Positions 16,441-50,698 of a stretch of 64,000 bases of DNA are shown here, piece after piece. The notes under the pieces were generated by a model. That model was not told the DNA's origin. It made no database searches and saw nothing but the letters and a program-made list of their open reading frames with translations. Every line of letters begins with the position of its first letter. Positions within the stretch are counted from its first letter, which is position 1. Both the position numbers and the translations under genes were made by a program. Source of the stretch: an uncultured bacterium (GTDB lineage: Bacteria > Acidobacteriota > HRBIN11 > JAKEFK01). Where the stretch lies: the NCBI GenBank assembly GCA_963777505.1, contig CAVZQN010000010.1, positions 38,003-102,002 on the forward strand. The letters run 5' to 3'.

Positions 16441-18486
16441 TTACTTGGGTCTGTCGAGGATCTCGCGTACTTTTGACAGAAGGACTGACATCGAGACAGG
16501 CTTGCTCAGGAAATCGGTTCCTGTCTCAATCCTGCCCTGACGCTCGAACGCTTCACGAGAATATCCTGACATACATAAGACGTGCAAATGCGGACGCAAC
16601 TTTCGCAATGACTGTGCTAAAGCAAGGCCGCTCATTGTCGGCATGACGATATCAGTGATCATGAGATGCACAGGCTCAACATAATGTCGAAGCAACTCGA
16701 TTGATTCTGGACCATTTGCAGCTTGAAGGACTTTGTATCCATGCACTTCAAGTAAAGCGCTCATTGAACTGCGCACGGGTTCATTATCATCCACAATCAA
16801 AATTGTTTCTGATCCTTTGAGCGAAACACTTTGTGCAACCACTGTATCTTTCTGAATGACTCTTTCCTCATCCATACGCGGAAAATACACGCGAAATACC
16901 GATCCATGTCCCGGCTCGCTGTAGACAGTAATGTATCCCTCACTCTGTTTCACAATTCCGTAGACCGTTGAAAGTCCTAAACCGGTTCCTCTGCCATGTT
17001 CCTTTGTTGTAAAAAACGGCTCGAAAATTCGAGCCATGGTCGCTTCAGTCATTCCTGTTCCTGTATCCGAAACAGTTAACAATACATAACGACCGATTCG
17101 TGATCCTGCATGATGGCTCGTATATTCCTCATCCATTTCGGTGTTGGAAGTTTCAATGATCAGCCTTCCACCTTCAGGCATTGCATCGCGAGCGTTGATT
17201 GAAAGATTCATAATGACTTGCTCAACTTTGCTCGGATCCGCTTTTATACGGCCCAGCCCTTCATCAAAAATCATATGCAGTTCGATATCTTCTCCGAGTA
17301 GTCGTTTCAGGAAATTTTCCATACTGCGAAGAATTGAGTTCAATTCGATAATTTTGGGCTGCATGATTTGACGACGGCTGAACGCGAGCATTTGCTGAGT
17401 CAGCGAAGCACCCTGTTCAGCAGATTTCAAAATTTCAGCAAGCGATTGGCGCAATGGACTTCGTTCATCCAATTTCGACATGGTAAGTTCAGCAAATCCT
17501 GTGATTGCCATCAAAATATTATTGAAGTCGTGTGCAACACCACCGGCGAGTTGTCCGATCGCTTCAATCTTCTGAACTTGAAAAAGCTGTTCCTGGAGTC
17601 CACGAACGTGAGTAATATCCCGCAAAAATCCGCGGTATCCAACGATACGTCCATTTTCATAGAGCGCAGTACATGTCTCCAGAACATGAAGCTTATCCCC
17701 GGAAATCTTCTTCAAGGTCAGTTCGTAATCCTTTAAATTACCTTCCGATTTCAAAGCTGCATGATGTCGCTTTTGAACTTCTGTATCCCAGTAGAAGTCA
17801 TCAAGCTTTTTGCTTAGCATTTCGTCCTTGTCTGTCACTCCGAGCAACTGTACCCCTGTTGCATTAATTTCTTGAAAAGATCCATCCGCCGCGCAAATAA
17901 AAACTGCATCGGGTGATTCCTCAAACAAGATCCTGTATTTTTCATCGGATTTACGAAGCCCTTCCTCAGCAATCTTCCCGCTCGCTAAGCGGTCTCTTAA
18001 TCGAAGATCGAGTAAAACCATTACCTGCTTCGCAAGACTCTGCAAGAGTTCAATTTGATCGCTATTGAGAGGTCGTGGAGTTTTATCAAGAATGCTGAGC
18101 GATCCCAAAACATGACCACTTTGAGTTACGAGAGGTGCACCAGCGTAAAATCTGTAACCTGGCTGCGAGGTGACCAAATGCAATGATGCATAACGCGGAT
18201 CAAGTAATGCGTCAGTCACAACAAGAACATGATTCGGATCTGCAATCACAAAATGACAGAATGAGTTATCGCGTTTGAATTCGCTTTCAGACAACCCTGT
18301 TTTTGATTTTAACCAGACACGATTGCTATCGACGAAGCTGATAAATGCTGCAGGAACTTGAAATAGGCGGGACGCAAAACGAGTGATCTCGTCGAAGATT
18401 TCTTCGGCGACAGAATCTAAAACATCATACTGATAAAGTGAATCAAGACGAGCTTCTTCGCTCGATGATCCAGTCTGTAGTGACAC
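16441..18486 (-). CDS. Hybrid histidine kinase GAF-PAS-HisKA-HATPase-REC (CckA-like architecture)
   Basis: RFYAGAPL (GAF), AGGVAHDFNNIL H-box, NARDAM, DTGTGM, GTGLGL, receiver ITDIVMP. Confidence 0.93.
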   Translation of the reverse strand: MSLQTGSSSEEARLDSLYQYDVLDSVAEEIFDEITRFASRLFQVPAAFISFVDSNRVWLKSKTGLSESEFKRDNSFCHFVIADPNHVLVVTDALLDPRYASLHLVTSQPGYRFYAGAPLVTQSGHVLGSLSILDKTPRPLNSDQIELLQSLAKQVMVLLDLRLRDRLASGKIAEEGLRKSDEKYRILFEESPDAVFICAADGSFQEINATGVQLLGVTDKDEMLSKKLDDFYWDTEVQKRHHAALKSEGNLKDYELTLKKISGDKLHVLETCTALYENGRIVGYRGFLRDITHVRGLQEQLFQVQKIEAIGQLAGGVAHDFNNILMAITGFAELTMSKLDERSPLRQSLAEILKSAEQGASLTQQMLAFSRRQIMQPKIIELNSILRSMENFLKRLLGEDIELHMIFDEGLGRIKADPSKVEQVIMNLSINARDAMPEGGRLIIETSNTEMDEEYTSHHAGSRIGRYVLLTVSDTGTGMTEATMARIFEPFFTTKEHGRGTGLGLSTVYGIVKQSEGYITVYSEPGHGSVFRVYFPRMDEERVIQKDTVVAQSVSLKGSETILIVDDNEPVRSSMSALLEVHGYKVLQAANGPESIELLRHYVEPVHLMITDIVMPTMSGLALAQSLRKLRPHLHVLCMSGYSREAFERQGRIETGTDFLSKPVSMSVLLSKVREILDRPK

Positions 18487-23088: not shown

Positions 23089-23135
23089 TCTCAAACTTTG
23101 CCGACACGGGACGAATGGGTTATTCTTATGGGCTT

Positions 23136-25011
23136 ATGAGAAATTTTCGCGAGGAACTTGCCTACGGAATTCTGCTCTGTGATGGAGCTATGGGCACCAT
23201 GCTTTATCAGCGCGGAATTTTTATCAATCGTTGTTTTGACGAACTCAATCTTTCCGCACCCGATCTTGTGAGTGAAGTTCATAAATCCTATGTAAAAGCT
23301 GGTGTCGACATCATCGAAACTAATACTTTCGGAGCCAATCACTTCAAGCTTCTTTTTCATGGTTTTGAAGGCAAATTGAAAGACATCAATTTACGTGGTG
23401 CGCAAATTGCGAAAGCTGTTGCGGGTAAAGAAACTTTTGTAGCAGGAGCGATCGGTCCTTTGGGTGTGCCAATCGAACCGATCGGAAAACTTGCATATGA
23501 AGAGGCTAAAGATGCTTTTAAGATGCAAATTCTGCCCTTGCTTGAAGGTGGTGTTGACTTATTCATGCTTGAAACATTTTCCAGACTGGAAGAATTGGAG
23601 CAAGCAATTCTTGCAGTCCGGGAATTGTGTGATTTGCCGATTATCGCGCAGATGACGATTACGGATGATGGGAACACTCCGCTTGGTGATACACCCGAAA
23701 CGATTGTGCAGAAACTTGCTCATTACAAAGTGGATGTACTGGGTTTGAATTGCAGCGTTGGCCCTCAAATTATGCTGGAAAGCATTAAAAGAATGGCCAG
23801 TTTTACTAAAATTCCGCTTGCCGCTCAGCCTAATGCAGGTTTTCCAAAACTTGTTGATGGCCGTTATATCTATTTATGCTCATCCGACTACATGTCGAAA
23901 TTTTCGAAACGATTCATTCAATCGGGTGTTCGAATTCTTGGAGGTTGTTGCGGTACAACTCCTGAACATATAAAGGCCATCAAAACAGTTGTTCGTGCGG
24001 TTCAACCTGCACGATTGTTTGTTGCGGCTGATAAGCCGAAAGAGACTACGTGCTCCAGCGGTGACTCCTGTTCCAACATCTCAAAAAACGGCCCTCTCTC
24101 ATAAACTTTCTGAAGGAAAATTTGCAATATCAGTAGAAATCGATCCACCGAAGGGCGTAGATCTTGCGAAAGTGATTGAAGGCGCAAAAATGCTTCATCG
24201 CGCAGGTGTGGATGTGATCAATATTGCAGATGGTCCGAGAGCCAGTGCACGGATGAGCCCAATGGCACTTGCTTCAATTTTCAAAACTCAGCTGGGTGTT
24301 GAAACGATCATTCATTATTGCTGCCGCGATCGAAATCTGTTAGGAATGCAAGCCGATTTAATCGGAGCTCATGCTCTGGGCTTACGGAATGTTTTGATGA
24401 TTACGGGTGATCCTCCGAAGATGGGCGATTATCCAAGCGCAACTGCTGTTTTTGATGTGGATTCAATCGGGCTGACTCAAATCGCAAATCGGTTGAATCA
24501 AGGTTTAGATCTCGCAGGAAATCCGATTGGCGCTCCTACCGCATTACATATTGGCGTTGGCGCCAATCCAGGTGCTCTCAATCTCGATGAAGAAATGAAA
24601 CGCTTCTACTACAAGGTGGAGGCTGGAGCAGAATACTTAATGACGCAGCCGGTATACGATATTCAGCTTTTTGAAAATTTTATTAACCGAATTCATGATG
24701 TGAAAATTCCGATTCTGGTTGGCATTTTTCCACTTGCGTCAGCGAAAAATGCTGAATTTCTGCATAACGAAGTTCCTGGAATGTCGGTGCCTGAAGAGAT
24801 CCGCAAACGGATGCATAATGCCGGAAATGGAGACGCAGGACGAGCTGAAGGGATCAGAATTGCACAGGAAGCTTTGCTTGCGATTTCACCCATGGTTCAA
24901 GGCGCTTATATCATGCCTCCATTCAATCGTTTTGATATGGCACTGGAAGTTTTGCAGGCGCTTCCTTCATTCACGCAAACCAGCCGCGCTGCTGCGAACG
25001 AACCTCGTTGA
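23136..25011 (+). CDS. yitJ: Bifunctional homocysteine S-methyltransferase / methylenetetrahydrofolate reductase, +1 frameshift near 24045
   Basis: DGAMGT, ETNTFGAN, GLNCSVGP, GGCCGTTPEHI; then VEIDPPKG, NIADGPRA, CRDRN, ITGDP, TQPVYD. Confidence 0.9.
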
Positions 25012-26609
25012 AACAACTTTCTTCATTGTTCCGATCACAACACAATCCCGATTCATACACGCATTATGTTGCGCTCGGTGATAGCATGTCCATCGATGAC
25101 TATCCTGGTAAAGACAAAGGAGCTGTTTCACTACTTTACAGAAACCAGGACACTCTCTTTCCTGAGTTTCAAGGACGCGATCTAAAAACTCTCTACCCCG
25201 AAATACAATTTCAAAATCTTGCTCTCGATGGAGCCACAACAATACATGTCTTACACGAACAACTTGGAAGGATTAAAGCACCGCGAGATCAACGAACACT
25301 TTTTACTTTAACAGCTGGCGGAAACGACATTCTCTTAGGACAAGATGCCAATGCGATCGTGAATCGTCTTGAAATAATTGTTAATAAAATAATCCGGGAA
25401 TATCCTCATTGCGATTTGATTATTGGAACAATTTACGATCCTACTGATGGCGTGAAGGATTTATTTGAAGATGGAAGAGATATGACGCGCGAATATGAAA
25501 TTTTAACAATCGTAAATGAAACAATCAGACAGTTCGGAAAACATTCCAATGTGAGCGTGATCGATATTTACTCACATTTTTTAGGACATGGTTCTCATTG
25601 CAAGGATTCCAATAATCCTTATTACAAGCCGGAAGATCCATCGTTATGGTATGTTTTAACAATTGAGCCGAATATTCGTGGCGCGCATGAAATCCGGCGC
25701 CTGTTTTGGAAGGCTTTACATCCTGAATCTGCTTCCATGAAAGCTAAATCCACATTCAAAGAATTACGGGAAAGGCTCAGCTCATTCCAGATTACTCAGG
25801 CAGCCAATCGGACGTTTGATTTAAGCCTTACTGAAGAAGAGCTAGAAAAGGAGCTCATGAGCGATCATGGCTCTAACAGGTTGCTTGAGCGTTTTTCAGA
25901 TAAGGAAGTTGTCTCGGCTTTAAAAGATTACAAAGTCTGGGATCTACTTGCGGAGAAGGGATACAAAAATCCGAGATTGTTAATTCGTAGTATTGATCCG
26001 TTCCGTCAAACCGTAAAAATCCTGGATGATGCTTCATCACCTGAAGATGAGGAACATACACTCTGCGAGTTGCGCATTTTTGATGCGCACTTGAAAGGAC
26101 CCTGCCCGACCAACAACGAAGTCATCGAGGTCGATGCGCTTGTAATCGATTGGTTGGTTTTTCAAAATCCGCGTGCGAAATTTACGCAGGAACGACAGCG
26201 GCTTCCCGGTCAGAAATTTCCAGGCCTTGGCATCATGGCACGTTGCATGACAGCTATCCTGGATCTTGCAAAACAGACGGGAAAGGAAGCTGTGATTAAC
26301 ATTCCTGAGTATTATCACAATGCAGTTTTGTATAAACCTGCATTCTGTTTCTTCTCGCCTTTTGTTGAAGGAAGATTTCAGGCGTTACAAGAATTCCTGA
26401 AGAACTTAAGTCTTGCGGATGCTTCCCATGCAGTTACAAATGGTCTGGTTTGGAATGAAACCAAAAATGAATTATTCACATGGAAACCGCACGAACAAAT
26501 GTTAGGAATTTCGCCAAAGATAAAAACATATTTCGAATCAGATACTTATAAAAATCAAGTGCGTGAAGCTAAAGAACAATCAAAATTTAGTTTGGTTAAG
26601 AACGGGTAA
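25008..26609 (+). CDS. SGNH/GDSL-like hydrolase fused to a GNAT-like C-terminal domain
   Basis: ALGDSMS and TAGGND blocks; C-terminal WLVFQNP...LPGQKFPGLG...PEYYHNAVLY. Confidence 0.7.
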   Translation: MKQLSSLFRSQHNPDSYTHYVALGDSMSIDDYPGKDKGAVSLLYRNQDTLFPEFQGRDLKTLYPEIQFQNLALDGATTIHVLHEQLGRIKAPRDQRTLFTLTAGGNDILLGQDANAIVNRLEIIVNKIIREYPHCDLIIGTIYDPTDGVKDLFEDGRDMTREYEILTIVNETIRQFGKHSNVSVIDIYSHFLGHGSHCKDSNNPYYKPEDPSLWYVLTIEPNIRGAHEIRRLFWKALHPESASMKAKSTFKELRERLSSFQITQAANRTFDLSLTEEELEKELMSDHGSNRLLERFSDKEVVSALKDYKVWDLLAEKGYKNPRLLIRSIDPFRQTVKILDDASSPEDEEHTLCELRIFDAHLKGPCPTNNEVIEVDALVIDWLVFQNPRAKFTQERQRLPGQKFPGLGIMARCMTAILDLAKQTGKEAVINIPEYYHNAVLYKPAFCFFSPFVEGRFQALQEFLKNLSLADASHAVTNGLVWNETKNELFTWKPHEQMLGISPKIKTYFESDTYKNQVREAKEQSKFSLVKNG

Positions 26610-28532: not shown

Positions 28533-29315
28533 TTACGAGCCGCGGCTGAGATTGATCATTTTATGCGCCATTCGTCTATAGACTGAATTGGGAAGCGCAC
28601 GTACAACATGGAAAAGTAATTTCATGCGGAATGGATAAATATAGCTTGTCTTCCGTTTCGCTACAGCACGGATCATCAATTCTGCCGCCTTATCAGGCTG
28701 CATCAACCAGAATCTGCGCGGATTATCTTGATTAATCGGTGTATCGACAAAACCTGGATAAATCGTAGTAAATTGAATTTCTAAAAGCTCAGCCGCAAGG
28801 CTTTCAATAAAAGCTTCAAGAGCAACTTTCGTCGTGCTGTACGCTGTACGGCCTGGCAATCCGCGCATAGCCGCTGCTGAACTTAAAGCAACAATGGCTC
28901 CCGATTTCTGTTTGGTCATCTGCTGCAAGCATGCCATCGTTGTATAGATCGCACCATTTAGATTTGTTGCGATCGTATCTTCTACAAGTTGCCAATCCCA
29001 GTTTTGAAATGATGTTTCTCCGCTGATGCCGCTGTTAACCCATGCTACATCAAGCCTTCCTGCTTCCTTTACAAATCCATCAACACATTCTTCAACTTGC
29101 TGGCGAACCTGGACATCACAAGCCCGGATCCAAAAACGGCTTCCCGTAGTTTTCAAAGAAGCTTCAAGATCTTTCATTGGATCAACGCGACGACTTAATA
29201 AACCAAAATGGATTTTGTATGGAGCCAGAGCTTTGACAATTGCAGCACCAAGACCGGAAGATGCGCCAGTAATCAACACAGCACGATTGGACCAATATTT
29301 TTCAAGGTAGTTCAA
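28533..29315 (-). CDS. SDR family oxidoreductase
   Basis: TGASSGLG, YSTTK, PGFVDT. Confidence 0.92.
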   Translation of the reverse strand: MNYLEKYWSNRAVLITGASSGLGAAIVKALAPYKIHFGLLSRRVDPMKDLEASLKTTGSRFWIRACDVQVRQQVEECVDGFVKEAGRLDVAWVNSGISGETSFQNWDWQLVEDTIATNLNGAIYTTMACLQQMTKQKSGAIVALSSAAAMRGLPGRTAYSTTKVALEAFIESLAAELLEIQFTTIYPGFVDTPINQDNPRRFWLMQPDKAAELMIRAVAKRKTSYIYPFRMKLLFHVVRALPNSVYRRMAHKMINLSRGS

Positions 29316-29379
29316 TGATGAACCTCTAGTTAATGACCAAGGCCCCGCCCTCGCTTCCCACTTCCGCAGGTTCGGGCCT

Positions 29380-30060
29380 TTAGGTTTTCATTACCCTTTC
29401 AATTAACTCATCAACGTCTTGTTCATTTAACGCATCAATTGCGACGGTAACAAATAATCCATTCACCTTAACAAACACATCGCGAACTAAATGATCCGAG
29501 GGCCGCGTCCCACCGGCAAATAATTTCTTATACAAACTGACGATCAAGCTATGATTTCCACCACACAGGTTACGTAAGATTCCACTAAAAAATTCGGAAC
29601 TGTCGGAAGCGTTTAATGTGATTTCGTACGGGTCAGGAGCAAAACGGCTGACGGTAAGTTCGGCCCACCACCACAATCGAGCAAAAGCATTTTCATCTAA
29701 AGAACCTAGATAACGTCTTCGGTTTGTTTGGCCACTAACAATATCGTAGTAGCGCCAACTGACATACTCAGGAAATCGGACCATCGAAAGAAAATGCCAG
29801 AACCTCATATCCGATGCAGCACGACGTGTGATCGGAAGCAGTTGATGTAAAGTTGCGCCCAGCTTTCCATCTGCTACGAGTTTCGTCATGGACGGATCCA
29901 AAGTAACCAACTCTAAGAATGCACTGATCTTGTCGTAAGGAGGGTCATTGCCATCCCCTAAGTAAAGGACCTTATCAGGTTTTACAGGTTTGGGCGGATT
30001 GGATCGCAAAAATGGCTCATTTGCGTAGACGATGCCGTGATCCAGCAAAGGCAATCTCAT
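29380..30060 (-). CDS. DUF6339-like hypothetical protein
   Basis: AASDMRFWHFLS...YVSWRY...RRYLG...NAFARLWWWAELT pattern, recognised from memory. Confidence 0.6.
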   Translation of the reverse strand: MRLPLLDHGIVYANEPFLRSNPPKPVKPDKVLYLGDGNDPPYDKISAFLELVTLDPSMTKLVADGKLGATLHQLLPITRRAASDMRFWHFLSMVRFPEYVSWRYYDIVSGQTNRRRYLGSLDENAFARLWWWAELTVSRFAPDPYEITLNASDSSEFFSGILRNLCGGNHSLIVSLYKKLFAGGTRPSDHLVRDVFVKVNGLFVTVAIDALNEQDVDELIERVMKT

Positions 30061-31082
30061 TCGTAGTATTCCGTCATTTGTTCTTCAGAAACTAAAGTTT
30101 GCATTAACGCATTGTGATGCGACAGCGTTCTTAAATGATGCTGAACACGCAATGTCAGTAATGTCTGAGAGCTACGGTCTTCGAAAGCAGATACAATTTC
30201 ATCCTGCGGTCGTTTGATCATGCGGGCGAGGGTTCGAATAATTTTCCGGGAAAGCACAACTGATGGATCTTCAGGGTCATCAATATCCAATTTTTCGATA
30301 TGACTCGCATATTCTGCAAGTTGAATCCAAACATCGGTAGCAATCATTGCAAACAATGCGTTTCGAATTCTTGCAGCTGTTCCTGTCTTGGTTCGAGACT
30401 CAAAAATTACTTTCAACGATGGATGACGATTGTTCAATCTCAAAATCGGGTGAGGCGGTTCGATGATGAGATGGTACATCGAATCTTGAATATCATCCTG
30501 AAACCGATGCCACAGAATTTCAATTCCAGCTCCTGGACTTTCCTGCGGTGGATCCACTTGAATATGCAATGGGAAACCAAGCGCTTGCCGTGATCCTTTC
30601 AAAGATGGCTTCAATACATCCGGCTTCACCTGATCTTCGGAGAGTAAAATCATCGGAGTCACGATAGCGTAACCCGCGATATCTTTTCTCAGAATTTTTA
30701 AAGGTAGAAATACGACCCCGGTGCTAAAGGATCGCGAAGATGCAGTACGCCATCGAGTTGCTTTACATAGAATATCGACAGCATACATACATGGAGGTGA
30801 AAAAAACTGAGAAGGATTTTCAACTGTTAGGCCGACCTGTAATTCAATCTGGTCCCATTCATGTCCGACAACCGTGAGATCCCATCTTGCCTGTGCATCA
30901 GTTATCCGCTTCTTGGACATTTTCCAATTCGGTTCATGAATTGGTTCGCCAACACGTTTTCCTTTTCGAAGAAAATGTGCCGTGAAATCCGCTTTCACTG
31001 CATCCGGTGACAATTCGTATGGCCAAACTGTTCGGCGTTCAACGGCATCTTTTAGCCAGTTCGGTGATTCTACAATATTCAT
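30057..31082 (-). CDS. Hypothetical protein, middle gene of the GHKL operon
   Basis: 341-aa ORF overlapping both neighbours by 4 nt (ATGA). Confidence 0.75.
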   Translation of the reverse strand: MNIVESPNWLKDAVERRTVWPYELSPDAVKADFTAHFLRKGKRVGEPIHEPNWKMSKKRITDAQARWDLTVVGHEWDQIELQVGLTVENPSQFFSPPCMYAVDILCKATRWRTASSRSFSTGVVFLPLKILRKDIAGYAIVTPMILLSEDQVKPDVLKPSLKGSRQALGFPLHIQVDPPQESPGAGIEILWHRFQDDIQDSMYHLIIEPPHPILRLNNRHPSLKVIFESRTKTGTAARIRNALFAMIATDVWIQLAEYASHIEKLDIDDPEDPSVVLSRKIIRTLARMIKRPQDEIVSAFEDRSSQTLLTLRVQHHLRTLSHHNALMQTLVSEEQMTEYYE

Positions 31083-33013
31083 CGTTTGGAAACTTTTATC
31101 TGCAATTCTTGCTTCGCTACTTCTGACAAGAATGTTTCAAGTGGTGCCGTTTCGCCTCGTAAATCGCAAATGATTTCCTGATCCTCAACTTCTGCTTCAT
31201 AAGTACCGTGTGGCTCCGCAAGTAATTGCCAGTCCGAACCATTCATTCGAAGATGTGTAAAACGTACAGGCGCTTTCTCAACGAGACGATGGCCAACTTC
31301 TTCACCAAAAAATCCATATTTGCATTCTACTTTCCAGAAGGAGTATGGCCCCCCAGCAAAATGTTTTCGACCTGGAACCGTCACACGAATTTGAAATTCG
31401 TACCTACGATGACCATTTTCAGTTTTCATTTGTGGAGCCATCAAAAAAGAAAGATGAGTATCGCGTGCACTATCATGTTCAGGGCCTTCGGAAAGAGGAA
31501 ACATGGAAGCAAGCAGCGAAGATGCTTTACCTTCTGGCCGAATGTCTTCCGTAGTTGCCGCTGAGATCGCATATCTAATCCCGTCAAGCATCCTGCCTAT
31601 TTCTGCGCGAGCACCATACCAGTGCTTTAACTTGTCGGAATTCATCGTCCAAAGATCATGAGTTACCGGCTCAGAATAAGCGAGCAATTGTTCACAACGA
31701 TCTTGTTGAGTCACACCTGCCGACATGTATTCCGGGCAACTTTTACCTCCCAACACAACTGCATAAAAATCGGATCCCCCAATTCCAGGACGTCCAATCC
31801 GTTGATACCCGACGACCATTCCAGCTCCACGAATCAATGCTGTTCGATTCACATACTTTGTGAGATCCGTTTCTTCACCTCGCAGAGAAATACACACCGC
31901 GGTAGCTGCTTTACACTTTTCTTCATTTGATGGTCCTTTAGGCACATTGACTTCAACGGATTTCAAATGCAAACCTGTTTTAGGTTTTTCCAAACGTGCA
32001 GCGATATATGCTTTTATAAATGGTGCAAGATAAGGAACATCCAGAACATCTCTGGTTCCAGTTTCCGTATCATTCTCCGTTTCATTTTTTGTGAAGACCT
32101 GCAAACTTCCATCAGTGAGTGCAGGCCAGTAGTAGTCTTCAGCCGCTTCGCGTATCCGTTTCAAAGTTTCTTCCGGATTCATAGAATCTTCATCTGCATC
32201 GGGATCTTCGAAATCAACAATCAGAATCGACGTTCCGGTTTGGCGTTCTGTTCGCACCGGAATTCCAAACAAAGCAGCCCAATCGTCTGCTGTGGAATCT
32301 AAATAAGACCATGTCAAATCACCTTTGCGTGAACCCCAAAATCCTTCACCACGATACGATTGTTTGCCGATGTGATGACCTGGCAATCGAAGATGACCAA
32401 AAAATCGATTGAAATGTGGAACATCAGGAGAATTTTCAAAGATGTAAGGGGTTTGCAATCTTGAATGAAACAAAACAATACGATAGCGCGAATGTTTCCA
32501 TAACACCGTTTTGCCAAGGCCATAAATACCACCCATCGCTTCAGCGGATTTCTGGCTATCCCCTATGTTGCGACATAAACCCAGGAAGCAATGCGGCTTT
32601 GGAAAGCGCTGAACTTCAAGGCTGTGTTCCGGACCGATCAGACCACGCGTGCCATAATCCTCAACGCATAAAATGCGCAACGGAGCGCCGCTTGCCAGCC
32701 ATGCTTGTGGATCGTCAAAGTCGGACTGACGTTCATTCTCTTTTGCATATTGCCTGACAGCCTGAATATGCGGAATAATCTGATCAAACTGCATCGAGTT
32801 TAAGAAGAATTCGCGTGCTGTGTCCCTCAGAACTTTCATGCGAAAAGTCACACGAACTGGATCGGGACCAGAGCGATTATCGAGGGAATTTTGCAAAATC
32901 TCGCGCACAAAAATTTGCAGCGGACTCAGTTCGCCACGAGATTGAACCGTCAACGACGCCGGATCAGTCACGGTTCGCGAATCATTATCAATGAATGTAA
33001 AATGCCATGGCAT
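31079..33013 (-). CDS. GHKL (MORC/MutL/Hsp90-like) ATPase, not a histidine kinase
   Basis: Bergerat motifs FVREILQNSLD, VEDYGTRGL, GGIYGLGK, TGTSI; no HisKA H-box. Confidence 0.78.
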   Translation of the reverse strand: MPWHFTFIDNDSRTVTDPASLTVQSRGELSPLQIFVREILQNSLDNRSGPDPVRVTFRMKVLRDTAREFFLNSMQFDQIIPHIQAVRQYAKENERQSDFDDPQAWLASGAPLRILCVEDYGTRGLIGPEHSLEVQRFPKPHCFLGLCRNIGDSQKSAEAMGGIYGLGKTVLWKHSRYRIVLFHSRLQTPYIFENSPDVPHFNRFFGHLRLPGHHIGKQSYRGEGFWGSRKGDLTWSYLDSTADDWAALFGIPVRTERQTGTSILIVDFEDPDADEDSMNPEETLKRIREAAEDYYWPALTDGSLQVFTKNETENDTETGTRDVLDVPYLAPFIKAYIAARLEKPKTGLHLKSVEVNVPKGPSNEEKCKAATAVCISLRGEETDLTKYVNRTALIRGAGMVVGYQRIGRPGIGGSDFYAVVLGGKSCPEYMSAGVTQQDRCEQLLAYSEPVTHDLWTMNSDKLKHWYGARAEIGRMLDGIRYAISAATTEDIRPEGKASSLLASMFPLSEGPEHDSARDTHLSFLMAPQMKTENGHRRYEFQIRVTVPGRKHFAGGPYSFWKVECKYGFFGEEVGHRLVEKAPVRFTHLRMNGSDWQLLAEPHGTYEAEVEDQEIICDLRGETAPLETFLSEVAKQELQIKVSKR

Positions 33014-33066
33014 CCCTCATATTATAACGAGGTTATTACTGGCTTCAGTAGGTGGGCTGATCTTTG

Positions 33067-33125: not shown

Positions 33126-33166
33126 AAAAGCCCCGTACGTTATAATGTTCCACTTCGGAGGAGCAT

Positions 33167-35182
33167 ATGGCGCTGTTTTCACGTTTATTCGGCAAACCGG
33201 ACGATAACACTCGTGTCTACGGAAACGTTAAGTTTCCGCTGGTGCTGAAAGAAACTGCACGTGACCCAGGCTCCTATGCACAATGGGTGAAGAATCATCG
33301 ATGGAATTCAAAAAATGAAGCCTGGTGTTTGAAACAGATTCCGAAATTCAAAACAAATCCCACGATCGGTGTTCTAATGCAATGCACCAATCCACGTCTC
33401 GAATTTCTTCGTGAAAGCCTTGCATCAATCTTTAATCAAGTCTATCCGTTTCATCGCCTCTATATAGTTGATCGTGGTTCAAGTGATAAAGAAGTTCGTG
33501 ACCTTATCCAGGAAATGGAAAAAGATTCCCGTGTCAAAGTTTCATTCCAAAAAAGTTCAGAACGCGACACGGAAGCAATCGCACGAATCATGAAAAAGGC
33601 CGACAGCGAATGGCTGCTGCTAATGGGCGCAGAAGATGTGATTGAACCTTATGCCCTTTTTTACATGGCTGCCTATCTGCAGGATCAAGTTCAAATCGAT
33701 TTCGTTTTTGCGGATTCCGATTTGCTGGATGATAAAGGATTACGATATGCACCGCAGTTCAAACCAATTTGGGCCGTTGGTTCAACATATCCTCTCGGTT
33801 ACTACCAGCATCCTGTAATGATGAGCGCCAGAATTGTTGAAAAAGTGCAGGGATATGAACGTGCTGTCACTTTGATGGAAAAAGGAGAACTTCTTGATGA
33901 GGCTTCGAACCATAGCAGGTATGTGATTCAAGTACCGGGCATCTTGTATCATGCACGCGCTCGCGGACTGAAAAATGAAGAACCACCCAAACCTGTATGG
34001 AATGTTTTGGCAAGTGAAAGCCTGGTTAATAACAACAATGAAATTCAGATCAATACAGATTTGCGTATTGCAGCTCAACCTCCAGCGCCGCTAAAACTTT
34101 TGTGGATTCTTGATTCTCTCGATCTTGAAGATGGCCCAGTCTTACTATTAAGTATCGCCCGATATCTTCATAAGCAAGACAAACATGACATTACGATTGT
34201 TTCTTCAGCGAATGGTCCGCTCAAAAAGTCCTATGAGCAACTGGGAAAAGTTCAAATTGTGGAAACCTTTGAGGCCATTTCTAACCAAATAAAATTGCTT
34301 CATAAAGAGAATACTTTTGATGCTGCTTTCATTGGTTCGTTAAACACGGGCAAATATCCGGAAGTCTTAAACGAACTAAATCTGCCTTCCATCTGGCATT
34401 TGCCCGAAGACACTTCGATTCTTGAATCATTACGAAATCAATTCGATCAACCAGCAACAATCCTGACTCCATCCCTGACACAAGCGCACGGATTCAAAGC
34501 CTTTGATACTCGAGATGTTTTACGTGAATTGCCGCCTGCGGCTGACCTTGCGGAAATTAAAATTTTTAAACAATCGAATGGCCCAAATGATCTTCGAACC
34601 AAATTCGGAATTTCGCGGACAGCAAGCGTTGTATCAATCATAGGTCCAACGATCGAAAGGAAGGGACAAAAGGTTTTTGTGACATCCGCGATTGAACTCC
34701 TAAAACTTCATCCGGAAGCTGAACTCGAATTCTTCATTGTTGGAGAACGTGCGGGTTCATATCTTGATGAAATTAAGGAACAGCTTCAGAAGAGTGGATT
34801 TTCCAAACATTTCCACTTTGTGAAAGAATCAGAATCTCCATCCGAACGCTATCCTTATTATTGGATTTCCGATGTAATCGTTTCGTGTTCAACGCATGAG
34901 GTATTTCCAGTTTCGATAGTTGAAGCCATGGCATTTAAGAAAGCAGTAATCGGAACGCACGTTTTTAGAACTGAGGAAATAATTCAGGATGGCGGAAATG
35001 GATTTTTATTTAATCCAGGCGATTCAAAGGATCTTACCGAAAAACTGGAACCCGTTGTGACCAATCGAGATTTCGCTGAGGCTCTTGGACGCGAAGGCCT
35101 GGAATTGGCCATGGAAAAATATGCCTTGAAGAAAATCGGAACACTCTTCGATCGCTATTTGCGTGAATCGATTGTTTATTAG
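33167..35182 (+). CDS. Glycosyltransferase: degenerate GT2-like N-terminal domain + GT4 (GT-B) domain
   Basis: LRESLASIFNQVY...IVDRGS; ERKGQ and EVFPVSIVEAMA (Ex7E). Confidence 0.85.
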   Translation: MALFSRLFGKPDDNTRVYGNVKFPLVLKETARDPGSYAQWVKNHRWNSKNEAWCLKQIPKFKTNPTIGVLMQCTNPRLEFLRESLASIFNQVYPFHRLYIVDRGSSDKEVRDLIQEMEKDSRVKVSFQKSSERDTEAIARIMKKADSEWLLLMGAEDVIEPYALFYMAAYLQDQVQIDFVFADSDLLDDKGLRYAPQFKPIWAVGSTYPLGYYQHPVMMSARIVEKVQGYERAVTLMEKGELLDEASNHSRYVIQVPGILYHARARGLKNEEPPKPVWNVLASESLVNNNNEIQINTDLRIAAQPPAPLKLLWILDSLDLEDGPVLLLSIARYLHKQDKHDITIVSSANGPLKKSYEQLGKVQIVETFEAISNQIKLLHKENTFDAAFIGSLNTGKYPEVLNELNLPSIWHLPEDTSILESLRNQFDQPATILTPSLTQAHGFKAFDTRDVLRELPPAADLAEIKIFKQSNGPNDLRTKFGISRTASVVSIIGPTIERKGQKVFVTSAIELLKLHPEAELEFFIVGERAGSYLDEIKEQLQKSGFSKHFHFVKESESPSERYPYYWISDVIVSCSTHEVFPVSIVEAMAFKKAVIGTHVFRTEEIIQDGGNGFLFNPGDSKDLTEKLEPVVTNRDFAEALGREGLELAMEKYALKKIGTLFDRYLRESIVY

Positions 35183-35806: not shown

Positions 35807-37837
35807 TTGGAGCAGGAAACAGTCCGTTTGAACGTGGCTCAAAAGCCAAGCTCAGATCTTGAAGAGTTGTGTATCAACACGATCCGCATGCTTGCTGTGG
35901 ATGCTGTTGAAAAAGCGCAATCAGGACATCCAGGAACTCCTATGGAAGCCGCAGCGATGGCTTATGAGTTATGGATGAACATTATGCATTACAATCCTGC
36001 GAATCCTGATTGGCCAAATCGCGATCGCTTTGTATTGTCCGCTGGTCATGCATCGATGTTGTTGTATTCGATGCTTCATTTAACTGGATACGATCTTCCG
36101 CTGGAACAAATTCAATTATTCCGTCAACTTGGTTCAATGACAGCAGGACATCCTGAATATGGCCACGCTCCTGGAATTGAAACGACTACAGGCCCTCTGG
36201 GTCAAGGATTTGTTACAGGTGTCGGGATGGCTGTCGCAGAGCGCTATCTTGCAAGTTATTTTAATCGTCCCGGTCACAAGATCGTAGACTATTCCATCTA
36301 CGGATATTGCAGCGATGGCGACATGATGGAAGGCGTTTCCTCTGAAGCTGCTTCACTCGCCGGACACCTGAAATTGAACAAGCTTATCTATATTTATGGT
36401 GATAACCAGATCACCATTGATGGTGAGACAAATCTTACTTTTTCTGAATCTGTTGGTGCGCGATTTGAGGCTTATGATTGGTTTGTTCAACACATTGATG
36501 GAAACGACCGAGCTTCTTTTACTGATGCAATTCAAAAAGCACAAAGCCAATCTGATCGACCCTCTTTGATTATTGCTAAAACCCATATCGGCTATGGATC
36601 TCCCAAACAAGATCAAGCGGCAGCACATGGCTCACCATTGGGCGCAGAAGCAGTAAAGAAAACGAAAGAACATTTTAATTGGCCGCTGGAACCTACTTTT
36701 TACATTCCTGAAGATGCGTTGCGTTATTTTCGACAGGCAGTAGAAAAAGGAAGACGCGCCGAAGAAGATTGGAATCGCCGATTCGATGCGTATGCAAAAG
36801 AATATCCGGAACTTGCAGAAACATGGAGCAAATGGCTGAAAGCTGAATTGCCTGAAGGTTGGGAGAAATCAATTCCAGATTTGAGCGGAGAAAAAGGGCT
36901 TGCAACCCGGCAGGCTTCCGGGAAAGCAGTGAACGCCCTCGCGAATGTTTTGCCCAATTTGATTGGAGGAGCCGCAGATCTCGCAGAATCAACAAGTTTA
37001 ATACTCAAAGATAAAGGAAGTTTTCAGCTCAGACCGGACGGACGCAACATTCACTTTGGAATCCGCGAACATTGTATGGGTGGAATTCTGAATGGAATTG
37101 CGCTTAGCCGAATGTTGATTCCAGTTGGTGGAACCTTCTTTGTGTTTTCGGATTATATGCGCCCTTCCATCCGAATTGCTTCCTTAATGAAGGCACACAC
37201 AATTTATGTTTTCACCCATGACAGCATTGGTTTGGGTGAAGATGGACCGACCCATCAGCCGATTGAACATCTTGCTTCACTTCGAGCGATGCCGGGATTG
37301 ACTCTAATTCGGCCCGCTGATGCGACTGAAACCACAGTCGCATGGGAACTCGCAGTCTCACGCAATCAAGGTCCAGTTGCATTGATACTGACTCGTCAAA
37401 AATTACCCGTAATTGATCGTACAAAGTTTGCATCGGTAGATGGTGTTCGCAAAGGCGGATATGTTCTTGCAGATTCAAAACAGGGCGATCCGCAATTGAT
37501 CTTGATGGCAACCGGCTCGGAAGTCACAGTTGCGCTTCAAGCATATGAAATACTTTCCAATGAAGGAATTGCTGTGCGCATTGTAAGTCTTCCTTCCTGG
37601 GAAATTTTTGAAGAACAAACGCCGGAGTACCGCGAATCGGTGATTCCGAAAAATGTGCCAGCAAGACTAGCCATTGAAGCTGCAGCAACTTTTGGATGGA
37701 AGCAATATGTTGGGGACCATGGCGATGTTATCGGAATGACAACCTACGGAGCTTCAGCTCCCCTTGAAGCAGTAATGAAACATTTTGGTTTTACTGCAGA
37801 CAACGTGGTTGCACGCGCAAAGGCACTCTTGAAGTAA
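35807..37837 (+). CDS. tkt: Transketolase
   Basis: SGHPG, DRFVLSAGH, TTGPLGQG, DGDMMEG, HFGIREH, THDSIGLGEDGPTHQP. Confidence 0.97.
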   Translation: MEQETVRLNVAQKPSSDLEELCINTIRMLAVDAVEKAQSGHPGTPMEAAAMAYELWMNIMHYNPANPDWPNRDRFVLSAGHASMLLYSMLHLTGYDLPLEQIQLFRQLGSMTAGHPEYGHAPGIETTTGPLGQGFVTGVGMAVAERYLASYFNRPGHKIVDYSIYGYCSDGDMMEGVSSEAASLAGHLKLNKLIYIYGDNQITIDGETNLTFSESVGARFEAYDWFVQHIDGNDRASFTDAIQKAQSQSDRPSLIIAKTHIGYGSPKQDQAAAHGSPLGAEAVKKTKEHFNWPLEPTFYIPEDALRYFRQAVEKGRRAEEDWNRRFDAYAKEYPELAETWSKWLKAELPEGWEKSIPDLSGEKGLATRQASGKAVNALANVLPNLIGGAADLAESTSLILKDKGSFQLRPDGRNIHFGIREHCMGGILNGIALSRMLIPVGGTFFVFSDYMRPSIRIASLMKAHTIYVFTHDSIGLGEDGPTHQPIEHLASLRAMPGLTLIRPADATETTVAWELAVSRNQGPVALILTRQKLPVIDRTKFASVDGVRKGGYVLADSKQGDPQLILMATGSEVTVALQAYEILSNEGIAVRIVSLPSWEIFEEQTPEYRESVIPKNVPARLAIEAAATFGWKQYVGDHGDVIGMTTYGASAPLEAVMKHFGFTADNVVARAKALLK

Positions 37838-37885: not shown

Positions 37886-40176
37886 ATGCCTCTTCTTGAA
37901 GGATCTAAAGTCGGTGTTTACGAAATTCTCTCCCTGATCGGAAAGGGTGGAATGGGAGAAGTATATCGAGCGTTGGATCCACGCCTCGATCGTGAAGTTG
38001 CTGTTAAGGTCCTTTCCGAATCACAGTTGCAAGAAGAACAATCATTTCTGCGTTTTGAGCAAGAGGCAAAAACGCTCGCTTCATTATCACATCCGAATAT
38101 CTTGACGATTCACGATATCGTTACCGAGCAAGGCAGCATGTTCATTGTGATGGAATTCCTAAAAGGAGAATCACTGCGAGATCGTCTGAAACAAGGAGCG
38201 ATCCCCTGGAAAGAATCTTTAGCAGATCGGGATCGCTATTGTAGAAGGTTTGGCTGCGGCACACTCAAGGGGAATTATCCATCGCGATCTTAAACCCGAA
38301 AACATATTTCTTACTCAAGACAATCTGATTAAAATTCTTGATTTCGGTTTAGCTCGTGTAGAAAGCAAATCCATTCCAATGGCGGAATCATGGATGGATA
38401 CTTCACCTGCATTGAGCAAACCAGGGATGATCATGGGGACATTGCGAAGTATGTCTCCAGAACAATTGCGCGGGCAGACAGTTGATGTCCGAAGCGATAT
38501 TTATTCTTTTGGATGCATTCTCTATGAAATGGTTTCCGGAAAACTTGTATTTGATAAAAATGATGCTGCGGAGTTAACTGCATCCATTCTGCGTGATCAG
38601 CCCAGCGCAATCGACACCCAAACGGCCCCTCAAGAATTGATCAATTTGATTTTCCACTGCCTGGAAAAGGATCCATCACATCGCTTCGCTTCGGCGCACG
38701 AACTCGCTGAAGAGCTGCGATCGGTTGCATTCCCGTGCGGCTGCTTCTAAATCCATTTTGCCTCGCTCAAGTACTAAGAGCCGCATCAAGTCTGTTGCCA
38801 TTCTTCCAATTCTTAATGCAGGCGGGGATTTGGAAGAGGAATACCTTATGGATGGAATTACAGAGAGCATTATTAACAGCCTCTCTCAACTGCCAAGATT
38901 CAAAGTTACAGCAAGAAGCACTGCATTCCGTTACAAGGGAAAAGATGTTGATCCGCGGGAAATTGGCCGCGCACTTGGGGTGCAAACATTGATGACCGGC
39001 CGAGGCGTACGTCGCGGTGAACGATTAGATATACAAACGGAACTCGTAAACACAGAAGACGGCACACAGCTTTGGGGGCAGCATTTTAGCAGAGATCTTT
39101 CCGATGTCTTTTCGGTGCAAGAAGAAATTGCCGGACTTATTTCATCAGCATTGCAGCGCAAATTGACAGGAGCCGAAAAGAAACTGCTCAGTAAACGGTA
39201 CACAAAAAATGTTGAAGCGTATCAGCTTTATCTTAAAGGCCGCTACTATTGGAATAGAAGACGAGCTGAAGATTTTGAGAAGGCGATCTCATTTTTTGAG
39301 CATGCTATCGAGATAGATCCAACGTATGCTCTTGCGTACTCCGGAATTGCCGATTGTTATAACTTTCTTGGTTGGGATGCATATGGGCTTTCAGATCCAA
39401 AAATCACATTTCCACGTGCAATCGCTGCGGCAACCAAAGCTTTAGAAATAGATAAAACATTAGCTGAAGCATATACCTCTCTTGCCTGGGCAAAATGGTG
39501 TTTTAATCATGACTGGGATGGTGCCGAAAAGGATTACCGGCGCGCAATTAAACTGAATCCCGGCTACTCCACCGCACGAAACTGGTACTCCGATCTACTC
39601 GCAGGATGTGGACGATTTGAAGAGGCTCTTGAACAAATCAAAATCGCGCAAAATCTGGATCCTCTCGCTCCAATCGTTTATGCAGTTCATGGATTGATCT
39701 TGTATTTCATGCGGAATTATTCAGCCGGCTACTATGAAGCCGCAAAAGCACTTGAACTTCAACCCGACTTCGTCGCAGGACTCGTAGTTACTGGACGATG
39801 CCTCGTGCTGGATGAGAAATTTTCTGAAGCGATTGCAGTTTTGGAAAATGCCGTGGAGGTTTCAAAGAATCATCCTAGAGCGATGGCATTTCTGGCGCAA
39901 GCTTACGCGTCTTCAGGAAAAATTGAACAAGCAAAAAAGATTTTGGAAGAATTGAAATTTCTTTCAACACAAAAGTATCTTCCAGCATTAATGGATACGG
40001 CTTTGGCTTACGCCGCACTCGGTGAGAAGGAAACGGCTTTTCAATGGCTCGAAAAAGCATACCGGGAGCGCTCAGCGTTATTGATCTGGCTTTATCCGGA
40101 GCCTGTGGCAGATCCATTAAGATCCGACCCACGTTTTGATGATTTGATTAGGCGTATTGGGATTACACCCTCGTGA
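37886..40176 (+). CDS. Ser/Thr protein kinase + TolB-N-like + TPR protein, two +1 frameshifts (~38221, ~38730)
   Basis: GKGGMGEV, VAVK, HRDLKPEN, DFG; SVAILP...DGITESII; TPRs; LRSDPRF. Confidence 0.88.
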
Positions 40177-49876: not shown

Positions 49877-50698
49877 TCATCTTTTTTGAAGGACAAATGT
49901 GCGTGGAATATTCTGGTGGTCATTCCTGATTTCGAGAATTTTGAATAGATTGCTTTGTTCACACAAGTTTTGAATTCGCGTGCTCTGTCCAAAACCAATT
50001 TCAAAAACTAGATAACCATTCTGTTTCAGAATCCGTCCTGTGGATTCAATCAAAGCAGCATAGACATCGCTGGATGCAATGAGAGCTTCTCTCGGCTCCC
50101 ACCTTGTTTCCGGAGGAAGCGAATCAAATTCATCCGAATTCACATAGGGTGGATTGGAAACAACAACATCGAACGAATTATCATGAAAAGGAAAATGATG
50201 AAGATTGCCGCGCACCGGCAAAATCTTTCCACGCGCATTCTCAACAAGCACGCTGATCGCAGTTGGCGACAATTCAAGCGCTATCACTTTTGAATTTTGA
50301 AGCTCAGCCGCGAGAGTTACAGCAATGGATCCGGAACCGGCTCCTGCATCCAGGATTCTAGGAGACGCGGGCAAAGACAAACTCAACACCGCACGGATAA
50401 TCTCTTCGGTTTCAGGACGCGGAATCAATACTGATTCATTCACTCTAAAGTCACGTCCAAAAAATTCCTGAACTCCTTCCAAATACGCAAGCGGATAGTG
50501 CAAAGCTCTTCTTGATAACATCGATCGATACGAATTTTCTTCGGCCGGAGTCAAATCAGCTTTTAAATTACCAAATAAATGCGCGCGAGTGGAATTCAGA
50601 GCAATGAGCAAAATCCGTTCCGCATTCCAACGCGGATCGGAGATGCCATAGTCTTGAAGCATTGCCTCGCCGAAAGCTAAAGCTTCATGGATATTCAT
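49877..50698 (-). CDS. prmC: Release factor glutamine methyltransferase
   Basis: VLIPRPETE, DAGAGSGSIA, VSNPPY, FEIGFGQ. Confidence 0.93.
   Translation of the reverse strand: MNIHEALAFGEAMLQDYGISDPRWNAERILLIALNSTRAHLFGNLKADLTPAEENSYRSMLSRRALHYPLAYLEGVQEFFGRDFRVNESVLIPRPETEEIIRAVLSLSLPASPRILDAGAGSGSIAVTLAAELQNSKVIALELSPTAISVLVENARGKILPVRGNLHHFPFHDNSFDVVVSNPPYVNSDEFDSLPPETRWEPREALIASSDVYAALIESTGRILKQNGYLVFEIGFGQSTRIQNLCEQSNLFKILEIRNDHQNIPRTFVLQKR

Follow-up and report, generated by a model that had tools for sequence, protein, structure and literature searches.

A 64,000-nucleotide stretch from an uncultured Acidobacteriota bacterium (contig CAVZQN010000010.1, positions 38,003 to 102,002 of the forward strand; hereafter the window) carries a solitary operon of three genes, A, B and C, which we interpret with moderate confidence as a vertically inherited version, in a clade of its own, of the ATP-dependent 'restriction' side of a restriction-modification (R-M)-like defence system. 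Relatives of this triad occur in the same gene order in other bacteria and in archaea and travel mostly with a DNA methylase. The three genes of the window are open reading frames (ORFs) on the minus strand:

31079 to 33013, minus strand: gene A, ORF of 644 amino acids with an ATG start, GHKL-type ATPase
30057 to 31082, minus strand: gene B, ORF of 341 amino acids with an ATG start, no family
29380 to 30060, minus strand: gene C, ORF of 226 amino acids with an ATG start, DUF6339

The genes are chained by ATGA stop/start overlaps at 31079-31082 (A/B) and 30057-30060 (B/C), and coordinates and sequence agree with the three-ORF chain that a first-pass annotation, made from the letters of this DNA alone, had described. 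A-B-C is one operon of three translationally coupled genes, and the proposal that they form one unit is borne out both by the overlaps and by the recurrence of the same order in relatives.

The triad is a conserved module in bacteria and archaea

We surveyed relatives by a profile scan of one genome per species, and the best 80 of 176 confirmed relatives yielded 69 loci. These belonged to Halobacteria, Cyanobacteriota (including Prochlorococcus), Planctomycetota, Verrucomicrobiota, Actinomycetota, Chloroflexota, Acidobacteriota, Myxococcota, Pseudomonadota and Bacillota. Gene order was counted for 85 distinct A genes of at least 450 amino acids, with hidden Markov models (HMMs) iterated on the ORFs of the 69 loci. 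A was followed directly by B and then by C on the same strand in 67 out of the 85 cases, and in one case (locus L008) A-B-C stood behind an A gene split in two. Seven A genes had an unrecognised middle ORF of ~300 amino acids before C, three were affected by merges of the ORF caller and five were cut by contig ends. Finally, one locus (L003) had a truncated B and had lost C, and another (L052) had only opposite-strand ORF calls between A and C. A-B-C is a conserved module, patchily spread across bacteria and archaea, and the neighbourhood survey that the first-pass annotation had suggested finds that the three genes do travel together.

The module also occurs on plasmids: 10 of 72,556 plasmid records gave a match, among them five megaplasmids of haloarchaea and the Synechococcus elongatus plasmid pIITB6_1. 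Among 50,697 phage records there was one weak tblastn match, so the triad is essentially absent from phages; together with the lack of a PHROG match, this led us to reject a phage origin.

Most relatives are accompanied by DNA methylases

We clustered 861 flanking ORFs from the loci and then subjected them to HMM searches. The dominant partner was a C5 cytosine DNA methylase (Dcm; PF00145, 2.6e-46), detected by HMM in 44 of the 69 loci (a raw count). HhH-GPD proteins were present in 24 loci and Vsr in 13; partners of these two kinds repair the T:G mismatches that arise from deamination of 5-methylcytosine (5mC). On a tree of the 81 A sequences from the loci, Dcm was found within 1.5 kb of A in 43 rows and farther away inside the locus in another 20, with Dcm-linked rows spanning at least seven phyla. 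In 8 of the 81 rows it was absent although both flanks extended for 4 kb or more, and 10 rows could not be scored. In plasmid pIITB6_1 the RefSeq annotation reads hypothetical, hypothetical, DUF6339 and DNA cytosine methyltransferase, followed by an Abi gene; this block is a four-gene operon, A-B-C(DUF6339)-Dcm.

In the Bacilli loci a D12 N6-adenine methylase stands directly after C in place of Dcm. The layout of these loci (L067-L069) comprises a helix-turn-helix (HTH; Sigma70_r4) protein of 839 amino acids, A, a middle gene, C and the D12 methylase with DUF7226, and in L069 these genes are followed downstream by TOTE AEP-helicase, Peptidase_M78-HTH and AbiEii-like genes. Several Dcm-less loci adjoin type I R-M genes, Eco57I-like or N6_N4 methylases, SNF2 helicases or GmrSD, and other neighbours among the loci include McrBC, DUF4420 PD-(D/E)XK with Z1, HNH, a DISARM-like set of MZB, PLD and helicase genes, and TOTE. 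An exchangeable methylase, a partner that repairs mismatches and a setting in islands together give the signature of an R-M-like defence system, of which A-B-C would be the non-methylase side. Since the triad travels mostly with a methylase, it is not a typical self-contained system, and the first of the two options offered by the first-pass annotation, a minimal self-contained system, does not fit the relatives. Its statement that genes of this kind sit beside Dcm and Z1/PD-(D/E)XK genes proved real for them, through the Dcm count given above and through Z1 and DUF4420 genes next to a second triad in picocyanobacteria.

That second triad was seen in four loci of Prochlorococcus / Cyanobium (L056-L058 and L063), where an A-B-C-Dcm operon is followed by a very divergent set of A, an unrelated middle gene and C. 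DUF4420 PD-(D/E)XK and Z1-domain genes adjoin it in three of the four (L057, L058 and L063), and its surroundings there correspond to the classic 'Dcm + Z1 + GHKL' neighbourhood. Picocyanobacteria often have two or three paralogous triads within 20 kb, as do haloarchaea (L006, L007, L009, L010, L014, L020-L023, L025 and others). The haloarchaeal triads are often arranged divergently around Dcm, an HhH-GPD glycosylase and two conserved genes, c2 (~258 amino acids) and c3 (~508 amino acids), which gave no Pfam or PADLOC match.

In Stenomitos frigidus, one locus (L047) reads A-B-C-Dcm-HhH, and in a near-identical one (L004) a DUF3427 fragment and a Mu-type transposase take the place of Dcm. The locus L003, from an unclassified cyanobacterium, has no Dcm either. 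The gene content of this series suggests that the methylase was lost first and that the triad then decayed.

Protein A is a GHKL ATPase with a transducer-like domain

The AlphaFold2 model of A (predicted local distance difference test, pLDDT, 83.9; predicted template modelling score 0.71) comprises a GHKL (Bergerat-fold) domain at residues ~1-270, a transducer/S5-like domain at ~280-425, a helical segment with the motif E448-x-x-x-H452-D-x-W455 and a C-terminal beta-sandwich at ~520-644. An alignment of 31 homologues of A placed the conserved motifs at the following codons:

32879 to 32905, minus strand: N box (motif I), R37-E38-I-L-Q41-N42-S-L-D45
32510 to 32659, minus strand: G1 box (D119-G127) through G2 box / ATP lid (G161-K168)
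31649 to 31672, minus strand: ExxxH motif, E448-P-V-T-H452-D453-L-W455, behind the transducer-like domain

In the N box, R37, Q41, N42 and D45 were invariant and E38 was conserved in at least 90% of the homologues; by the general pattern of GHKL ATPases, the predicted roles of E38 and N42 are those of general base and Mg2+ ligand, respectively. The G1 box reads D119-x-G-x-x-G124-x-x-G127 and the G2 box G161-G162-x-x-G165-x-G167-K168; G124, G127, G162, G165 and G167 were invariant, and D119, G161 and K168 were at least 90% conserved. G121 of the G1 box and the G3 residues, G260-T261, were likewise invariant or at least 90% conserved, so that all four ATP-binding (Bergerat) motifs noticed on first reading are present and conserved across the family. 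In the downstream part of the protein, R395, M399, E448, P449, H452 and W455 were invariant and D453 was at least 90% conserved. E448 and H452 lie immediately behind the last helix of the transducer-like domain in the model.

A Foldseek search of the model against the PDB returned Topo VI-B as the top match (8.7e-10), followed by Hsp90, the GyrB 43K ATPase fragment, TRAP1, SMCHD1 and MutL LN40. These named matches had E values of 1e-9 to 1e-7 and a probability of 1.00, and 285 matches in total had E <= 0.001. The fold check thus recovered a Bergerat fold followed by a transducer domain. PADLOC gave a match of A to PDC-M33A (3.9e-15; residues 30-185, positions 29-172 of the 627-position profile). 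Pfam gave no family at E <= 1, HisKA included, and there was no NCBIfam or PHROG match; a profile built from the 31-homologue alignment had 0 matches among PDB sequences, and no longer fused forms of A were found at E <= 1e-5, an absence that carries little weight.

Because Pfam assigns A to no family, its placement among GHKL proteins rests on the motifs, the PDC-M33A match and the fold search. By these measures A truly belongs to the GHKL ATPases, its second domain is transducer-like, and its ATPase activity is predicted. When examined as a sensor histidine kinase, A had no HisKA or DHp domain by Pfam, and its ATPase domain is itself N-terminal. Its earlier description as a non-kinase GHKL ATPase stands on the four motifs, the missing HisKA and the Topo VI-B-like fold.

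Proteins B and C

The model of B (pLDDT 92.2) has an N-terminal Ig-like beta-sandwich at residues ~25-217 and a C-terminal helical bundle at ~221-340. We could assign B to no family: Pfam returned noise only, including a match to the MUN domain (E 0.035, below the cut-off) that we discarded, and there was nothing from PADLOC at E <= 1, NCBIfam or PHROGs. A family of 158 representatives was nevertheless collected at E <= 1e-3, nearly all of them ~320-350 amino acids long, and the ESM Atlas gave only unnamed clusters of similar length, which probably represent B's own family. Fold matches in the PDB were restricted to generic beta-sandwiches (UNC119, RhoGDI) with TM scores of 0.25 or less, and neither Pfam nor the fold search pointed to an enzyme-like fold or a catalytic signature.

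C belongs to DUF6339 (PF19866; 4.8e-13, a score of 49.7 bits where the gathering cut-off is 23.2, over positions 8-174 of the 175-position profile), so that what had been called a DUF6339-like ORF is matched above the cut-off. It also matches PADLOC PDC-M33C (PDLC04586; 1e-12, residues 73-224, positions 76-239 of the 247-position profile). Arg and Trp are abundant in the protein, and W88 and R128 are invariant among 33 homologues. Clusters of fungal kinases returned for C by the ESM Atlas (0.92, with fewer than 170 shared features) were treated as chance. Profiles of B and C gave nothing significant against PDB sequences, where only SMAD MH1 and designed armadillo proteins appeared at E >= 0.007. 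In a complex prediction of A residues 271-644 with B and C, a control in which chain 1 had been replaced scored almost as high.

Relation to known and predicted systems

PADLOC's PDC-M33 has the same layout as the triad: a GHKL ATPase of ~630 amino acids, a middle gene of ~300 and a DUF6339-type protein of ~250. The PADLOC check proposed by the first-pass annotation linked A and C of the window to PDC-M33A and PDC-M33C (3.9e-15 and 1e-12, as above) and gave no match for B. In Bacilli, the A proteins of L067 and L068 match the profile over their full length at ~1e-127 with the same gene order, and on sequence and order the loci L067-L069 are true PDC-M33. The window triad differs from them in that A is matched over residues 30-185 only, in that B aligns with the Bacilli middle gene at an hhalign probability of 0.4%, and in having neither the upstream HTH protein nor the downstream D12 adenine methylase. 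PADLOC's 145 PDC systems were all predicted by 'guilt by embedding', in a preprint whose main text does not name PDC-M33 (Payne et al. 2024).

The description of paraMORC2 also fits A. This GHKL ATPase family is described as having an S5/transducer-like domain, an ExxxH motif after it and a sporadic distribution, and paraMORC families are reported with methylases and Vsr and are viewed as acting in R-M-like defence (Iyer, Abhiman and Aravind 2008, PMC2292703). In a 2026 Tiamat preprint, this role of the paraMORCs is given as a proposal and not as a demonstrated one. A shares with the paraMORC2 description, in the passages that concern this family, the N-terminal GHKL and S5/transducer-like domains with invariant E448 and H452 behind them. 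Its family is likewise sporadic in bacteria and archaea, including cyanobacteria and Gram-positives, and has cytosine methylase and Vsr neighbours. The differences are that B and DUF6339 partners do not appear in those passages, and that the R-M neighbourhood (Dcm, Vsr and HhH-GPD, as counted above for the 69 loci) is missing from the window and from L001, its syntenic relative. We call A paraMORC2-like by its motif and by the distribution and contexts of its family.

With Tiamat and other prokaryotic MORC defence ATPases, as far as the preprint text describes them, the triad shares a GHKL/GHL ATPase, a clamp-like architecture, methylase neighbours and an implied link with defence. Tiamat is, in that text, a single gene with its own C-terminal PD-(D/E)xK nuclease, whereas A has no such domain. 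A matched no Tiamat or MORC model in PADLOC or Pfam.

Multi-subunit restriction systems linked to Dcm, such as BsuMI of Bacillus subtilis, combine a C5 methylase with several non-canonical 'R' genes, a GHKL ATPase among them. Compared with the Dcm/Z1/DUF4420 kind of multi-subunit system, the window triad lacks a Z1, AIPR or PD-(D/E)XK gene and a methylase.

A literature search on GHKL, cytosine methyltransferase, Vsr and restriction found no paper. The triad had been called uncharacterised at first. In the sense of a kind not seen before, this is not supported: its kind is already catalogued as a predicted one, as PDC-M33A/C and as Pfam DUF6339, and the paraMORC2 description fits A.

The window copy is isolated, syntenic and under purifying selection

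Housekeeping genes stand on both sides of the triad, and Pfam confirmed the two flanks between which it had been placed:

28533 to 29315, minus strand: short-chain dehydrogenase/reductase (SDR)
33167 to 35182, plus strand: GT2+GT1 glycosyltransferase

Farther neighbours identified by Pfam are DUF885, GDSL, MTHFR and transketolase genes. An HMM search of the 64 kb for Dcm, Vsr and HhH gave no match at E <= 10, and Pfam searches of 54 further window ORFs of at least 100 amino acids revealed neither a DNA methylase nor a transposase, integrase or defence gene. The only methyltransferases recognised by Pfam were a PrmC-type enzyme (49880-50698), which is not a DNA methylase, and small-molecule ones. 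No cognate DNA methyltransferase thus lies within the window, and the observation that no methylase or recognisable nuclease adjoins the triad was upheld.

In a FastTree phylogeny of 107 A proteins, window A fell in a clade of 20 rows (97% local support), apart from every Dcm-linked clade. The clade otherwise consists of metagenomic proteins and the A protein of L002, with branch lengths of up to 1.25. The A protein of L001 is 82% identical to window A (tblastn), and L001 is syntenic with the window over ~22 kb, comprising a sulfatase, transketolase, glycosyltransferase, A-B-C, SDR, DUF885, GDSL and MTHFR gene. Nucleotide identity is 72.2% in the triad and mostly 72-74% in the flanks, where two segments fall to 66-68%. 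There is probably a third syntenic genome, on the slender evidence of an A homologue (P0005) and a transketolase (P0285) whose longest contigs have the same length, 15,897 bases. The proportion of non-synonymous differences (pN) between the window and L001 was 0.128 for A, 0.164 for B and 0.186 for C, compared with 0.178 for the SDR gene, 0.146 for transketolase and 0.156 for DUF885; the synonymous proportion (pS) was saturated (0.69-0.80). The synteny and the housekeeping-like pN indicate that the triad has been inherited vertically under purifying selection since the two genomes split. At larger distances the clade does move: in L002, A is 51% identical and belongs to the same clade, and the locus is not syntenic and adjoins an ISL3 transposase, an HNH endonuclease and an SF1 helicase. 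Syntenic conservation as core genome, which the first-pass annotation had raised as a finding that would speak against defence, is partly borne out, over the ~22 kb shared with L001 and in two, possibly three, genomes.

The ORFs of the window triad are intact, and every invariant family residue of A is present. Its own clade and a pN equal to that of housekeeping neighbours indicate that the window copy is not a decaying remnant, so the other half of the dichotomy originally offered, a detached sub-module, is not supported.

Both assemblies seem to carry indels. The homocysteine S-methyltransferase and MTHFR genes form two overlapping ORFs in the window (23115-25011, plus strand) and one fused ORF of 625 amino acids in L001 (18107-19981), and the GDSL gene, a single ORF of 533 amino acids at 25008-26609 of the window, is broken into two (292+217) in L001. 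A Ser/Thr protein kinase and TPR gene at 37886-40176 (plus strand) of the window is broken into three overlapping ORFs (Pkinase positions 1-94, Pkinase 113-256 and TPR), which is either a frameshifted gene or the product of assembly indels; this segment is missing from L001, where a second sulfatase stands instead. The window transketolase (35807-37837, plus strand) has its nearest named relatives, 62-69% identical, in Acidobacteriota, NC10, Thermodesulfobacteriota and Candidatus Manganitrophus.

Putative expression signals

Two features border the operon:

33021 to 33026, minus strand: TATAAT, candidate -10 element, 7 nt upstream of the A start codon at 33013
29339 to 29380, minus strand: 7-bp inverted repeat right behind the C stop codon, with arms AAGGCCC (29380-29374) and GGGCCTT (29345-29339)

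The perfect TATAAT ahead of the first ATG is where it had been reported. This hexamer is scarce in the window (9 copies compared with 25.0 +/- 5.3 in shuffles), and 2 of the 9 copies lie inside the 153-nt divergent intergenic region between A and the glycosyltransferase gene. They face outwards: the second copy, at 33141-33146 on the plus strand, stands 20 nt before the glycosyltransferase ATG. Their arrangement suggests a compact pair of divergent promoters. No -35 element was found for the TATAAT of A, and the site was not among the matches of a consensus promoter scan. If it is a -10 element, its distance of 7 nt from the ATG would make the transcript leaderless; we infer both the promoter function and the leaderless A mRNA.

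The reported hairpin after the last stop is likewise present, with its arms pairing in the minimum-free-energy fold (-23.9 kcal/mol, z = -1.30; 23 of 200 shuffles were as stable). We rejected it as an intrinsic terminator: the stem is unexceptional and without a T-run, and it was not among the matches of the terminator scan.

Interpretation and alternatives

If the triad is the ATP-dependent side of an R-M-like system, A would dimerise on ATP and clamp DNA, as other GHKL and transducer proteins do, and B and C would supply target recognition, effector activity or both. The only nameable candidate for a catalytic site would be the invariant E448xxxH452-D453 of A. Methylation by the partner methylase would mark self DNA, and the window copy may rely on a methylase encoded elsewhere or may discriminate its target without a dedicated one.

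Several points weigh against this interpretation. The 'restriction' activity of the triad is one that we purely infer, and the association with Dcm is the raw count mentioned above. We found no nuclease, helicase or methylase signature or other effector fold, and hence no endonuclease, among the families and folds of A and B or for C in Pfam beyond DUF6339 and in PDB sequences. B has no detectable homology to the middle genes of the Bacilli triads or of the second picocyanobacterial triads (hhalign probability 0.4%). The window locus lacks the usual marks of a defence island in the Pfam calls of its neighbours and in its GC, and its syntenic fixation is unusual for defence genes. L001 carries +1 insertions in A (locus position 11079) and in B (12165), which could be inactivating there. 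Finally, our literature search found no paper mentioning PDC-M33 or DUF6339, and PDC-M33 stays a prediction.

A first alternative is that the module has been domesticated in the lineage of the window: the triad would have left defence and would now serve a housekeeping DNA transaction that needs no methylase, for example ATP-driven clamping or compaction, repair, or the silencing of chromosomal DNA. We consider this possible, if unlikely. The housekeeping genes on both sides, the lack of a methylase, mobile or defence gene in 64 kb, the flat GC across the block (0.44-0.46), the synteny with L001 at ~72% nucleotide identity and the pN shared with housekeeping neighbours all agree with it. So do the age and diversity of the window clade and, with less weight, the probable third syntenic genome. 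On the other hand, synteny has been seen in two or three genomes only, the family is rare and patchily distributed, and all other contexts seen are R-M or defence-like. They include that of L002, the one other clade member with context, beside its transposase, endonuclease and helicase. The possible frameshifts in L001 also speak against an essential role.

A second alternative, which appears to us quite unlikely, is a modification-dependent (Type IV-like) or methylation-independent variant that attacks modified or marked foreign DNA and needs no self-protecting methylase. It would account for the lack of a methylase in cis in the window and in L001, and there is a second Dcm-less clade, of six rows (five from Planctomycetota and one from Acidimicrobiia). 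In three of its loci (L053, L050 and L054) both flanks extend for 4 kb or more, and in the other three (L019, L040 and L060) they are short. The paralogous triads of haloarchaea and picocyanobacteria, two or three to a single Dcm, would also fit if, speculatively, they had opposite methylation preferences. However, other methylases lie near several of the 'Dcm-less' loci: Eco57I-like ones in L053 and L050, an N6_N4 one in L054 and type I R-M in L019. Direct evidence for such a variant is lacking, and neither Pfam, for A, B and C, nor the fold search, for B, revealed a known domain that reads 5mC (such as SRA or MBD).

We have also considered, as an improbable reading, that A-B-C is a nuclease-free restriction machine. 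In it a MORC-like GHKL clamp (A), guided by C, a DUF6339 protein acting as DNA reader, and by B as scaffold, would entrap or compact unmethylated DNA topologically without cutting it, and the methylase-less window clade would have domesticated it as a vertically inherited chromosomal factor for silencing or compaction. If this were true, such a domesticated clamp would be a prokaryotic counterpart of eukaryotic MORC gene silencing.

That the triad is a detached remnant, decaying or inert after the loss of the methylase from an R-M system, seems very improbable to us. The insertions in A and B of L001 might be read in this way, and L003 shows what such a remnant could look like, with its truncated B and lost C and no Dcm, while the sister strain locus L047 keeps A-B-C-Dcm. 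In the window, by contrast, the ORFs are intact with all invariant family residues, and the L001 genes contain no stop codons after frame correction and have a pN far below pS, as in housekeeping genes. Moreover, because each assembly splits housekeeping genes that are whole in the other, the L001 indels may be assembly errors.

Finally, it is hardly credible, and was already disfavoured, that A is a GHKL protein of signalling or protein folding, such as an atypical histidine kinase or an Hsp90-like chaperone, with B and C as unrelated neighbours. Hsp90 and TRAP1 are among its fold matches and a classical histidine kinase is encoded elsewhere in the window (16441-18486), but in A Pfam shows neither HisKA or DHp nor a kinase or Hsp90 family at E <= 1, its top fold matches are Topo VI-B, B and C accompany it in strict order across phyla, and the context of its relatives is R-M.

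Implications

Returning to the R-M-like defence reading, the window copy is, as far as its genes and neighbourhood tell, an apparently functional, divergent, methylase-less and syntenically fixed variant of a catalogued candidate, PDC-M33-like and paraMORC2-like. The triad is widespread, in bacteria, haloarchaea, marine picocyanobacteria and on plasmids, and it pairs interchangeably with C5 or N6 methylases while having no recognisable nuclease. Its mode of action would define a new type of ATP-dependent restriction effector and would bear on the way in which DNA methylation is read by MORC-type GHKL ATPases. A natural experiment is offered by the window copy, which is intact, under purifying selection and fixed in a housekeeping neighbourhood with no methylase in cis; it may represent either a case of partnering in trans or a step towards the domestication of a defence module.

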